Shown here piece by piece: positions 1 to 6,055 of a DNA stretch of 6,055 nt (positions are counted from its first letter, which is position 1; every line of letters starts with the position of its first letter). The DNA comes from a virus (lineage: Duplodnaviria; Heunggongvirae; Uroviricota; Caudoviricetes): IMG/VR virus record IMGVR_UViG_2660238408_000005. One strand, 5' to 3'. The notes below the pieces were generated by a model, which was given only the letters and a program-made list of their open reading frames with translations, ran no database searches and was not told the DNA's origin. Made by a program: the position numbers and the translations under genes.

Positions 1-95
1 CATTGGAGCACCTGTGTTGTTCTGAGGTGAGCATATCACCTCTGTTCAGGTGGCCAAATTCAGTGTGCCACTTCAGACATTCTGAGGTGACAGCG

Positions 96-2710: not shown

Positions 2711-2911
2711 ATGAGCGTCAAAATTCAAACGATACCGGAACTGCTTATCCAGACACGAGGTAATATGACCGAAGTTTCACGAATGCTGAACTGTAATCGC
2801 GCCACGGTAAGAAAATATGCTGAAGATAAAGAGGGCAAAGGGCACGCCATTGTTGATGGTGTTCTGATTGTTCATCGTGGATGGGACAGGGGTAAAGACA
2901 GTGATGCGTGA
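2711..2911 (+). CDS. ninH: NinH-like small DNA-binding protein
   Basis: 66 aa starting at ATG 2711, SD GGAGAG at 2699-2704. Shares the pattern IP.LL...GN.TEV.R.L.C.R.TVRKY..DK.GK.HAIV..VL.VHRGW with lambda NinH as recalled from memory. Sits immediately upstream of Q, as in lambda. The ORF track start at 2708 is TTG. Confidence 0.7.
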
Positions 2912-3284
2912 TATTCAGCAGGTTCTTGAGCGCTGGGGCGCGTGGGTGGCTAATAATCATGAGGATGTGACCTGGTCGTCCATTGCTGCCGGTTTTAAGG
3001 GATTAATCCCTTCAAAAGTAAAATCCCGCCCGCAATGCTGTGACGATGACGCGATGGTTATATGTGGGTGTATGGCCCGCCTTAACCGGAACAACAACGA
3101 TCTACATGACTTGCTGGTTGACTACTACGTGTTTGGGATGACATTCATGACGCTGGCGCGGAAGCATGGATGCTCAGATGGTTATATAGGAAAGAAGCTA
3201 CAAAAAGCCGAGGGGGTGGTGGAAGGAATGTTGATGATGTTGGGTGTCCGGTTAGAAATGGACAAATATATTGAACATCCCTGA
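2904..3284 (+). CDS. Q: Late-gene antitermination protein Q, phage 21 / QuuD type
   Basis: 126 aa from ATG 2904: [34 protein letters not shown]...[16 protein letters not shown]...[15 protein letters not shown]. This is near-collinear with E. coli DLP12 QuuD / Q21-family antiterminators as recalled. The ORF track start at 2868 adds 12 residues and would overlap ninH more deeply; ATG 2904 overlaps the ninH stop by 8 nt. Confidence 0.8.
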
Positions 3285-3311
3285 TGGTAAGGGGCGACTT
3301 TCTAGAAAATA

Positions 3312-3327
3312 TTTTACGTACGTAAAA
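3312..3327. promoter_or_regulatory. Perfect 16-bp palindrome TTTTACGTACGTAAAA in the Q-terminator intergenic region; candidate operator or Q-binding / late-promoter element
   Basis: The sequence is its own reverse complement. An overlapping AAAATATTTT palindrome lies at 3306-3315. It sits where lambdoid phages carry the late promoter PR' and qut. Function is inferred, not demonstrated. Confidence 0.3.
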
Positions 3328-3340
3328 AACGGGATATTCT
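3313..3340 (+). promoter_or_regulatory. Candidate late promoter (PR'-like): -35 TTTACG (3313-3318), 16-nt spacer, -10 TATTCT (3335-3340)
   Basis: Hexamer matches to sigma70 consensus are weak to moderate. Position is right for PR' (downstream of Q, upstream of terminator). Alternative hexamer choices exist. Confidence 0.2.
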
Positions 3341-3370
3341 GTTAAGAGTGGTTGCTTCGCCACACAGCTT

Positions 3371-3397
3371 AAACCCGCCTCCGGGCGGGTTTTTTAT
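3371..3397 (+). terminator. Rho-independent terminator, candidate tR'
   Basis: Stem CCCGCC (3374-3379), loop TCCG, stem GGCGGG (3384-3389), followed by TTTTTT (3390-3395). The 5' AAA could extend the stem by pairing with the T tract. Confidence 0.7.
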
Positions 3398-3445
3398 GCC
3401 TGAAAAACGGTACAGGACGTTAAACACGCTGGTGGTCAGATGAGT

Positions 3446-3474
3446 TTGCAGATGTGATGACATATGGTTATTAT
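3446..3474 (+). promoter_or_regulatory. Candidate sigma70 promoter for the downstream tRNA: -35 TTGCAG (3446-3451), 17-nt spacer, -10 TATTAT (3469-3474)
   Basis: The predicted transcription start is about 3481-3482, a few nt upstream of the tRNA 5' end at 3484. Hexamers read directly from the sequence. Confidence 0.35.
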
Positions 3475-3483
3475 TCTGCCTCC

Positions 3484-3559
3484 GGCCCTTTAGCTCAGTT
3501 GGNNNNNNNNNNNNNNNNNNNNNNNNNNNNNNNNNNNNNNNNNNNNNNNNNNNNNNNNN
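3484..3559 (+). tRNA. tRNA gene, 5' end only visible (3484-3502); remainder is masked, so isotype is undetermined and the 3' coordinate is an estimate
   Basis: GGCCCTT-T-A-GCTC-AGTTGG gives a 7-nt acceptor arm, U8, A9, D-stem GCTC and the canonical D-loop AGTTGG. This resembles the 5' end of enterobacterial tRNAs such as Ile/Thr/Lys (from memory). tRNA genes between Q and the lysis genes are typical of lambdoid and Stx-type prophages. Confidence 0.5.
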
Positions 3560-3917
3560 NNNNNNNNNNNNNNNNNNNNNNNNNNNNNNNNNNNNNNNNN
3601 NNNNNNNNNNNNNNNNNNNNNNNNNNNNNNNNNNNNNNNNNNNNNNNNNNNNNNNNNNNNNNNNNNNNNNNNNNNNNNNNNNNNNNNNNNNNNNNNNNNN
3701 NNNNNNNNNNNNNNNNNNNNNNNNNNNNNNNNNNNNNNNNNNNNNNNNNNNNNNNNNNNNNNNNNNNNNNNNNNNNNNNNNNNNNNNNNNNNNNNNNNNN
3801 NNNNNNNNNNNNNNNNNNNNNNNNNNNNNNNNNNNNNNNNNNNNNNNNNNNNNNNNNNNNNNNNNNNNNNNNNNNNNNNNNNNNNNNNNNNNNNNNNNNN
3901 NNNNNNNNNNNNNNNNN
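3503..3917. other. Masked / undetermined sequence (415 N)
   Basis: A run of N directly visible in the sequence. Nothing inside can be annotated. It is flanked 5' by the tRNA start and 3' by a T7 tract. Confidence 1.
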
Positions 3918-4136
3918 CTTTTTTTGCAAAATTGCTGTGCAGAAATACTAACCTTCGGGCGTGCGATCATTCATAAGCACTCTGCTTTTATTCCGATTAA
4001 CTGTGGGTGGTTTGTTGGATAGAGTGCTTTCCTTACTGTATATATCGTTTCGCCCGCTTTTGCGTTTTTTTCTTTTCAAATCCCTTTCATTTCTCAGTGT
4101 AAAACTACGCCATCCGTTATTTGCGGAGGTGAGGCT

Positions 4137-4352
4137 ATGAAATCCATGGACAAAATTTCAACGGGCATTGCCTACGGCACCTCCGCCGGCAGTGCCGGCT
4201 ACTGGTTTTTGCAGTGGTTGGATCAGGTCAGGCCATCACAGTGGGCTGCGATTGGTGTGCTGGGAAGTCTGCTTCTGGGGCTTCTGACTTATCTGACGAA
4301 TCTGTATTTCAAAATAAGAGAAGACAAGCGTAAGGCTGCACGGGGAGAGTAA
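4137..4352 (+). CDS. S: Class II holin (pinholin), phage 21 S21 type, with dual-start motif
   Basis: 71 aa beginning [31 protein letters not shown]...[36 protein letters not shown], essentially collinear with phage 21 S21 as recalled. Two TMDs (a Gly/Ala-rich SAR-like TMD1, then TMD2) and a charged C-tail. Met1-Lys2-Ser3-Met4 gives the antiholin/holin dual start (ATG 4137 and 4146). Strong SD GGAGGT at 4125-4130. Confidence 0.9.
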
Positions 4353-4355
4353 ATA

Positions 4356-4985
4356 ATGAAGCATGAAGAAATGAATCAGCGATTCAATCACCTGGAAAAT
4401 GAAATCACTGAGCTTAATAAAAAATTGTCGGCGTTGGTGAGTTCTGAAGATGAAAACAAACGCCGCGATGAGCATTATGCGGCGATTTACGATTACTGCC
4501 ACAAAGTCGCTCACGAGACTTTTATGAAGTTTTTGCAGGAAAAGTTTTTACCGGCCGCATTGTCAGAAAAAGAGGCGGCTTACCTGCGGCCTGAGTACGT
4601 CATTACGGTTAACAGTGCCGGAGAGGAAGAGCATAAAAGTGATTTTATTGCGTCTGCACCGGATAAAGACCAGGAACCCCATCGGCCTTTCAGGGTTTCC
4701 TGTGAAGAGGGTGAGTTCGTCGTTTATGAGAACGGAAAACCTGTCCGGGCATCGCATCATCACTGCCTGAAAATTATTAATCTCGCTATCAGATGCCTGA
4801 AAGACGAAAACACCAGAGTTATGAAACGCATTGGCCGTTGCATGGGGTATTTGCAGGTGGCGGCAGAGATTGAAGCACTTGCCAGTGGTGCAGACATGGA
4901 TGCTGCGGTGCGGGAGGCTCTTCTTCGTGATTTCAATACTCCCCCTTTAAGAAAGAGCCTGATGACTGGATCCAGCCGGGGCTGA
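4356..4985 (+). CDS. Hypothetical 209-aa soluble protein of unknown function inserted inside the lysis cassette (moron candidate)
   Basis: ATG 4356 lies 3 nt after the holin stop, with GGAG at 4344-4347 (8-nt spacer). Long open frame with no TM segment or signal peptide evident. Acidic, coiled-coil-like N-terminus (NQRFNHLENEITELNKKLSALVSSEDENKRRDEH), several Cys/His (HHHC, CxxxxxxxxC). First half is visibly AT-rich relative to its neighbours. No family recognised by eye. Confidence 0.6.
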   Translation: MKHEEMNQRFNHLENEITELNKKLSALVSSEDENKRRDEHYAAIYDYCHKVAHETFMKFLQEKFLPAALSEKEAAYLRPEYVITVNSAGEEEHKSDFIASAPDKDQEPHRPFRVSCEEGEFVVYENGKPVRASHHHCLKIINLAIRCLKDENTRVMKRIGRCMGYLQVAAEIEALASGADMDAAVREALLRDFNTPPLRKSLMTGSSRG

Positions 4986-5050: not shown

Positions 5051-5584
5051 ATGAGCGCAAAAATCAAATACGGCCTGTCGGCTGCTGTTCTGGCGCTGAT
5101 TGCCGCAGGCGCGTCTGCTCCCCAGATACTTGACCAGTTTCTGAACGAAAAAGAGGGTAATCACACAACGGCATACCGTGATGGTTCTGGCATATGGACC
5201 ATCTGTCGTGGTGCCACAATGGTGGATGGTAAGCCTGTCATACCGGGAATGAAGCTGTCGAAGGAAAAATGTGACCAGGTTAACGCTATTGAACGTGATA
5301 AGGCGCTGGCATGGGTGGAGCGCAATATTAAAGTACCTCTGACCGAACCCCAGAAAGCGGGTATAGCGTCATTTTGCCCCTATAACATTGGCCCCGGTAA
5401 GTGTTTCCCGTCGACGTTTTATAAGCGGCTGAATGCCGGTGATCGTAAGGGCGCATGCGAGGCGATTCGCTGGTGGATAAAAGATGTTGGGCGCGATTGC
5501 CGCATACGTTCAAATAACTGCTATGGACAGGTTATTCGTCGTGACCAGGAAAGCGCATTAGCCTGTTGGGGGATAGATCAATGA
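5051..5584 (+). CDS. R: SAR endolysin (T4-lysozyme-like / GH24 muramidase, R21 type)
   Basis: 177 aa. N-terminal weakly hydrophobic Gly/Ala-rich signal-anchor-release segment [21 protein letters not shown]. Catalytic triad at E35, D44, T50 in [24 protein letters not shown], the same spacing as the E-8-D-5-T triad of phage lysozymes, with numbering identical to R21 as recalled. No clear SD upstream. Confidence 0.9.
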
Positions 5585-5985
5585 GCAGAGTCACCGCGAT
5601 TATCTCCGCTCTGGTTATCTGCATCATCGTCTGCCTGTCATGGGCTGTTAATCATTACCGTGATAACGCCATTACCTACAAAGAGCAGCGCGACAAAAAC
5701 GCCGGAGAACTGAAGCTGGCGAACGCAACCATTACTGACATGCAGCAGCGCCAGCGTGATGCTGATGCACTCGATGCTAAATACACGAAGGAGTTAGCTG
5801 ATGCGAAAGCTGAAAATGATGCTCTTCGGCGCAAGCTTGATAATGGTGGTCGGGTGCTCGTCAAAGGAAAATGCCCTGTGCCATCCTCAGCCGAAACCTC
5901 CAGCGCCTCCGGCATGGGCAATGATGCCACCGTCGAACTCTCTCCAGTTGCTGGACGAAACGTTCTCGGTATCCGGGACGGGTGA
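5581..5985 (+). CDS. Rz: Rz-like i-spanin (inner-membrane spanin subunit)
   Basis: ATG 5581 overlaps the endolysin stop (ATGA). N-terminal [21 protein letters not shown] plus a coiled-coil region. The first ~85 aa are near-identical to lambda Rz as recalled ([34 protein letters not shown]...[19 protein letters not shown]); the C-terminal portion diverges and is shorter. The ORF track start at 5566 is an upstream extension. Confidence 0.85.
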
Positions 5986-5995
5986 GGTAGCCTGA
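5801..5995 (+). CDS. Rz1: Rz1-like o-spanin (outer-membrane lipoprotein), overlapping Rz in the +1 frame
   Basis: 64 aa. Signal peptide [19 protein letters not shown] with lipobox VVGC, and proline-rich mature part ([16 protein letters not shown]) resembling lambda Rz1 (..VVGC.SK...PPPPPAW.MQPP, from memory). SD GAAGGAG at 5787-5793 with a 7-nt spacer. Ends 10 nt past the Rz stop. Confidence 0.8.
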
Positions 5996-6046
5996 GTTTA
6001 ACGGACACTCCTTCCTGAAATAGAATGGCATCAGAAGGAGCTAATA

Positions 6047-6055
6047 ATGAGCAGA
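6047..6055 (+). CDS. Start of next late-region gene (truncated by window end; product unknown)
   Basis: ATG at 6047 preceded by GAAGGAG at 6034-6040 (6-nt spacer). Only 3 codons are visible (MSR). Confidence 0.3.

Follow-up and report, generated by a model that had tools for sequence, protein, structure and literature searches.

Four-tRNA array very probably concealed by a masked run between the antiterminator Q and holin genes of a lambdoid prophage remnant

The masked run in the 6,055-nt stretch of DNA analysed here (the window) very probably conceals the tRNA-Ile2-Arg-Thr-Gly array and structured tail of a lambdoid prophage remnant of the Shigella flexneri/E. coli type, an array that would supply tRNAs for A-ending codons. 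A scan of the full window found a sole run of 415 N at 3503-3917, which leaves 5,640 visible bases (3,502 to the left and 2,138 to the right). The hidden content is not readable in the window and was deduced from unmasked relatives. The features of the window are as follows.

96-974: DnaC-like loader (Pfam)
971-2362: DnaB (Pfam)
2711-2911: NinH (Pfam)
2904-3284, plus strand: late antiterminator Q (PF06530 Phage_antitermQ, E 4e-54, full length; RefSeq antiterminator Q family in locus L001)
3371-3395, plus strand: tR'-like putative intrinsic terminator, AAACCCGCC-TCCG-GGCGGGTTT followed by a T6 run, 87 nt past the Q stop codon
3446-3474, plus strand: candidate sigma-70-type promoter, TTGCAG-17-TATTAT (-35 at 3446-3451, -10 at 3469-3474), from a scan and conservation
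3484-3502, plus strand: visible 5' end of tRNA-Ile2, 19 nt, GGCCCTTTAGCTCAGTTGG (anticodon CAU, ileZ/ileX type, by identity to relatives)
3503-3917, plus strand: N-run, presumed to cover the last 58 nt of tRNA-Ile2, then the Arg, Thr and Gly tRNAs and a 73-nt tail
3918-3976, plus strand: loop of inverted repeat I1 (with a T7 run at 3919-3925) and its right arm GCGATCATTCATAA at 3963-3976; the left arm is masked
4137-4352, plus strand: class II (P21-type) holin (PF04971, E 5.5e-35; RefSeq annotation in L001)
4356-4985: 209-aa ORF between holin and lysozyme, without a Pfam domain (PHROG 1085, unknown function, E 1e-73)
5051-5584: lysozyme (Pfam)
5581-5985: Rz (Pfam, profile positions 1-104 of 126 only)

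Q (2904-3284), the tR'-like hairpin (3371-3395), the tRNA start (3484) and the holin gene (4137) follow one another on the plus strand, and the Pfam assignments of Q and of the P21 holin place the masked block in the Q-to-lysis interval, where the first-pass annotation had put it. The 209-aa ORF occupies the spot held by YdfR in Qin-type cassettes. At the right end, Rz is truncated by an IS600-like end (5983-6055) that genomes carry in as many as 43 copies; positions 1-74 are the inverted end of another IS3-family element, which we take to be IS911-like (OrfA start). The window is thus an IS-bounded prophage remnant of a kind typical of Shigella. A megablast search with positions 3100-3502, from the 3' part of Q to the tRNA 5' end, returned no match among deposited phages, indicating that the Q/pR' region, unlike the tRNA array, is not represented among them.

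The 19 nt in front of the mask correspond to the acceptor 5' strand, U8/A9, the D-stem 5' strand and the D-loop of a tRNA, and the conserved 12-mer covering U8-A9 and the D-arm, TAGCTCAGTTGG, has one copy in the window against 0.01 expected by chance. ARAGORN reported zero tRNAs in the window itself, because only these first 19 nt of the gene are readable and its remainder is masked. The identical 19 nt begin a 77-nt tRNA gene in L001, in the viral contig L033, in L056 from S. flexneri SFBU1023 and in others (ARAGORN; PGAP 'tRNA-Ile'), and they open an Rfam RF00005 tRNA of 70.5 bits in every unmasked relative, in agreement with the earlier reading that a tRNA 5' end enters the block.

An exact 39-nt pattern for the left junction was found in 52 IMG/VR viral contigs and at four loci in S. 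flexneri SFBU1023 and E. coli ECMA0423. ARAGORN found precisely the set Met/Ile2(cat)-Arg(tct)-Thr(tgt)-Gly(tcc) in 45 of the 55 copies of the junction; most of the remaining copies are interrupted by an IS or by the end of the contig. Complete blocks are identical in 18 of the first 22 compared. L033 is 100% identical to the window over the 3,502 and 2,138 flanking bases and has a block of 365 nt; the same block is present in L056, where the left flank is 100% and the right flank 99.4% identical to the window. In nine complete E. coli genomes with the left flank at 100% identity, RefSeq annotates tRNA-Ile, tRNA-Arg, tRNA-Thr and tRNA-Gly directly 3' of it. In the relatives, the first gene is followed by tRNA-Arg(UCU) of 77 nt, tRNA-Thr(UGU) of 76 nt and tRNA-Gly(UCC) of 75 nt, separated by spacers of 1, 2 and 3 nt, and then by the 73-nt tail, which holds a hairpin (I2) and the left arm of I1. 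The scores of the Arg, Thr and Gly genes against RF00005 are 56.4, 69.8 and 64.9 bits, all four genes exceeding the gathering score of 29, and each of the four encodes its CCA end. A search of the tail and holin leader against Rfam at a permissive E-value gave no credible family besides the four tRNAs. The comparison of Q-S intervals with ARAGORN and Rfam on unmasked sequence, which the first-pass annotation had proposed as a check, therefore shows the cloverleaf continuing from the equivalent of position 3484, and its estimate of one to a few tRNAs becomes four in the relatives. We infer that the block of the window holds the same four-tRNA sequence.

The identity of the first gene requires comment, since ARAGORN leaves it as Met/Ile2. 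Its anticodon in the relatives is CAT, PGAP calls it tRNA-Ile, and a host gene annotated as tRNA-Ile matches it at 92% identity. The acceptor stem GGCCCTT/AAGGGCC provides the pairs C4-G69 and C5-G68, and both C4 and C5 are already visible among the 19 nt of the window. These two pairs are determinants of the Ile2-type acceptor stem. The gene is accordingly classified, from its sequence, as tRNA-Ile2 (CAU) and not as tRNA-Met.

The length of the N-run does not agree with that of the relatives. Among 27 unmasked loci with both flanks, the interval hidden in the window measures 365 nt in 25 and 363 nt in two; the 365-nt form is present in two complete Shigella/E. coli chromosomes and in one viral contig identical to the visible bases of the window. 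The Q protein led to seven complete genomes; both flanks are retained in six, each with 365 nt between them. The N-run exceeds this common form by 50 nt and is longer than the interval of any relative. A gapped pattern for a 400-430-nt version (left anchor-N{400,430}-right anchor) had zero matches in viral and metagenome contigs, full-length BLAST matches to the joined flanks in E. coli genomes have the 365-nt spacing only, and no N's occur in any locus retrieved from the genome collection or by way of the Q protein. The length of the N-run should therefore not be read as a true length, and 415 nt is probably not that of the block. It may reflect a deliberate mask that does not preserve length, a scaffold gap of estimated size or a private 50-nt insertion; the first two are far more likely, because the flanking bases are identical at 5,640 of 5,640 positions.

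It is unlikely that the hidden sequence differs from the 365-nt block because the N-run is a real assembly or scaffold gap, or because the source has a private 50-nt insertion. Besides the discrepancy between 415 and 365 nt, such a reading is favoured by the IS ends that bound the window, as in a short-read scaffold, by the occurrence of the Q protein mostly on 5-10 kb contigs (3,168 blocks), and by the draft contig L071, which stops about 380 nt past Q, within the array. The array is also repeated within genomes and has 75-76 nt in common with host thrU/glyT, and such repeats break assemblies. However, two array copies within one genome agree completely between window position 3436 and block position 293, whereas the mask spans 3503 to block position 365; since these borders differ, the N-run does not resemble a gap left by repeat collapse. 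The missing 400-430-nt version and the 365 nt carried by loci that match the window at every visible base also argue against it, and the documentation of the presented sequence says that certain stretches were masked on purpose. Even for a gap, the best estimate of the content would be the same. Thus, the first-pass concern that the N-run might be an assembly gap of uncertain true length is borne out as regards length, given the mismatch with the relatives, but leaves the estimate of the content unchanged.

The same position is occupied by stx in Stx phages, and in phage Nil2 the tRNA genes are followed by stx2AB, so that the block could in principle hide a toxin or other protein-coding cargo, stx-like or moron. 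We consider this extremely improbable. A block of 365-415 nt is too short; all 27 relatives with both flanks have only tRNAs and the 73-nt non-coding tail there, and complete genomes that keep the holin gene have no ORF or annotated CDS between Q and holin. The protein-cargo reading is effectively refuted by these relatives, which carry tRNAs and no stx, consistent with the earlier remark that the block is too short for stxAB.

Two candidate signals lie between Q and the array. The TATTAT hexamer of the candidate promoter ends 9 nt upstream of the tRNA 5' end; the promoter scanner matched the site at 9 of 12 positions in a TTTGCA-18 register. Taken by itself, the site is not above chance (one found against 0.7 expected). 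TTGCAG, TATTAT and the 17-nt spacing are nevertheless the same in the window, Nil2 and PhiR47_1, and their retention amid divergent spacer and upstream sequences supports a dedicated sigma-70 promoter for the tRNA array, as the first-pass annotation had found plausible. Further upstream, the hairpin at 3371-3395 folds at -17 kcal/mol (z -3.6), and Nil2 has an annotated tR' late terminator at the matching relative position. This hairpin is probably a late terminator overridden by Q, although the consensus terminator scanner made no call on it.

The region behind the array gave a different picture from the one first proposed. The T7 run at 3919-3925 had been regarded as the tail of an intrinsic terminator with a masked stem, and this is contradicted by the unmasked sequence, in which the T-run has no hairpin directly in front of it. 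The closest one upstream, I2 with an 11-bp stem, ends 22 nt short of the run, and the preceding 31 nt fold at -2.8 kcal/mol (z +0.43), no better than shuffled sequences. The run is one of two T7 runs in an intergenic region of 43% GC. A terminator scan of the unmasked sequence found no site at the T7 run; the same scan missed the tR'-like hairpin, so that the rejection relies on the folds and on the geometry of the repeats. The T7 run lies directly 3' of the left arm of I1, and hence inside its loop: I1 is a perfect 14-nt inverted repeat, TTATGAATGATCGC ... GCGATCATTCATAA, whose arms in L033 (12327-12340 and 12386-12399) are 45 nt apart and 100% complementary. Two perfect inverted repeats are thus found between tRNA-Gly and the holin gene, with 11-nt arms within L033 12274-12319 and 14-nt arms within 12327-12399. 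The 143-nt stretch with I2 and I1 folds at -48.2 kcal/mol (z -3.76). I1 and I2 travel as one module with the array and the holin leader and match no Rfam family, and in an attempt at covariation analysis the relatives were nearly identical in this region. The predicted folds suggest that it may form, at the boundary between tRNA precursor and lysis mRNA, a structure for processing or stabilisation. Closer to the holin gene, positions 4052-4071 of the window (CCCGCTTTTGCGTTTTTTT) are a degraded version of a clean hairpin and T-run, CCCGCTTTTGCGGGTTTTT, found at the same place in PhiR47_1.

Comparison of the individual genes points to a dual origin of the cassette. The Gly gene matches E. coli K-12 glyT at all 75 positions, and the Thr gene matches thrU at 74 of 76, both differences being in the D-loop. 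The other two resemble genes of the Stx2 phage Nil2: Ile2 matches ileZ at 74 of 77 positions, and Arg matches argN at 64 of 77 and shares its unusual C1-G72 scaffold. Given the host identity of Gly and Thr and the phage likeness of Ile2 and Arg, the cassette is, as judged from these alignments, a mosaic of phage-lineage and host-captured tRNA genes. Many Stx2 phages match its first two genes at about 90% identity over 155 nt. The ileZ-argN-argO cluster of Nil2 (AJ413274; also in phage 2851) is alike in the order Q, tR', tRNAs and in the promoter hexamers, whereas its second gene has the anticodon UCG in place of UCU, argO is missing here, and the thrU-like and glyT-like genes and then the lysis cassette follow where Nil2 has stx. 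In the literature collection searched, the names ileZ/argN/argO gave no account. The host thrU-tyrU-glyT-thrT-tufB operon has Thr and Gly in the same order as the phage array, in which tyrU, the 116-nt spacer and thrT are absent and the Thr and Gly genes are 3 nt apart.

The closest arrays in deposited phages are those of PhiR47_1 (PV340566), vB_EcoM-606R7 and vB_EcoS-689R5, which contain four tRNA genes and are about 95% identical over 394 nt. They have the same gene order, spacing, 73-nt tail and holin leader, and identical Gly genes; they differ in the Q gene upstream, in a Thr D-loop that matches the host exactly, and in the second gene, annotated as tRNA-Lys (UUU), which departs at 12 of 77 positions from the one described here. 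The order in PhiR47_1 is Q, four tRNAs, holin S, YdfR, R and Rz, and arrays of this type are found in about 520 of 5,426 complete E. coli genomes. The C1-G72 scaffold thus occurs with the anticodons UCU (L033 12035-12111), UCG (Nil2, L061 1578-1654) and UUU, annotated as Lys (PhiR47_1, L059 3078-3154), the Lys form of the second gene being the common one in E. coli genomes. Identical arrays are annotated in RefSeq genomes, and the four-tRNA cassette is in this sense already known. Tandem tRNA genes downstream of Q were also described in SfI, Sf6, ST64T, PS3 and P21, at the same position and with the same proposed role, the gene set there being Asn and Thr only; SfI likewise has a tRNA-Thr(UGU) and a matching bias toward ACA, and its account cites an ileX-like gene adjoining stx2 (PMC3636060).

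Several variants of the array were observed. Two copies per genome are present in L033, at 2899 and 11937, about 9 kb apart, and also in S. flexneri CP182556.1 (L056/L057); in such pairs, identity begins at window position 3436, extends slightly beyond the Gly gene and then gives way to divergence. In the chromosomes of SFBU1023 and ECMA0423, one nucleotide of the Thr acceptor stem is missing from the second copy (L057/L058). In L021, L035 and L054, the IS end corresponding to window positions 1-74 is inserted in the T-arm of Gly and truncates the array. The fourth gene of L023, annotated tRNA-Val(TAC), was considered as an anticodon switch and rejected: this glyT-type copy has a substituted base in the anticodon loop, lacks 1 nt of the acceptor strand and shows other mismatches, and is therefore a decaying pseudogene. 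The fourth gene of E. coli H89 and H90 is likewise annotated tRNA-Val(TAC). In L048 (IMGVR_UViG_2698536408_000009), an Ile-Arg-Thr array changes over, inside the Gly gene, to a 444-nt stretch with 100% identity to host glyT-thrT-tufB, a junction explained either by prophage-chromosome recombination through 75-nt identity or by an assembly chimera. This seamless passage suggests that the chimera of phage-lineage (ileZ/argN) and tufB-operon (thrU, glyT) genes may be an active substrate for prophage-chromosome recombination via 75-76-nt perfect identity; we regard this proposal, or its counterpart that the extra 50 nt are a private insertion, as quite unlikely.

The four codons read by the array, AUA, AGA, ACA and GGA, all end in A, and the host tRNAs for each of them are encoded by one or two gene copies. 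Codon usage was compared with a baseline of 9,280 codons from 31 host core genes only. On this baseline, AGA is enriched 3.4-fold in the window genes (p 9e-4) and 2.25-fold in the intact relative PhiR47_1 (p 3e-4); AUA is enriched 2.1-fold (p 0.017) and 1.4-fold, respectively; ACA 1.5-fold (not significant) and 1.8-fold (p 5e-5); and GGA 1.4-fold and 1.0-fold, neither being significant. The lysozyme gene (5051-5584), located about 1.1 kb downstream of the tRNA-Ile2 gene, has seven AUA among 176 codons, about seven times the rate of host core genes. Extra supply of low-copy tRNAs for A-ending codons is the most likely function, and it is the one usually given for tRNA genes at this site. Under this proposal, the array would most likely be transcribed from its own candidate sigma-70 promoter, TTGCAG-17-TATTAT, and, by a second route, Q-modified RNA polymerase would read through tR' during lytic growth. 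Host RNase P and 3' processing enzymes would cut the transcript into four mature tRNAs, of which tRNA-Ile2(CAU) is predicted to read AUA after lysidine modification. The array may thus top up tRNAs that the host encodes once or twice (ileX/ileY, argU-type function, thrU, glyT), and the extra copies would raise the decoding of A-ending codons, which phage and horizontally acquired genes use more than core genes do. For the copy in the window, an IS-bounded remnant with a truncated Rz, any benefit in lytic growth is moot.

Since GGA is not significantly enriched, codon demand does not explain the Gly gene. In other phages it is established that phage-borne tRNAs can escape defences directed at tRNA, and the array might instead be chiefly a counter-defence reserve that replaces tRNAs cleaved by anticodon nucleases of the host or of competitors, or depleted in infection. 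Such a role could account for an exact glyT copy for an unenriched codon and for an argN-type scaffold that is unlike host Arg tRNAs and is found with the anticodons TCG, TCT and TTT. However, such nucleases would cleave Gly and Thr, which copy host genes exactly or nearly so, just as they would the host tRNAs: their anticodon loops are unchanged relative to the host, the two Thr differences being in the D-loop. The window and the examined loci showed no tRNA nuclease gene, and the enrichment of AGA, AUA and ACA suits the simpler codon-supply account. A chiefly counter-defensive array is thus very unlikely, and codon supply is retained as the preferred function.

Taken together, the masked block can be reconstructed from relatives with high confidence as a familiar prophage tRNA cassette, neither a toxin nor a new element. 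The cassette combines phage-lineage tRNAs with near-exact copies of single-copy host genes, and its four tRNAs for A-ending codons fit an old proposal, that temperate phages supplement scarce tRNAs to serve AT-richer, horizontally acquired genes.
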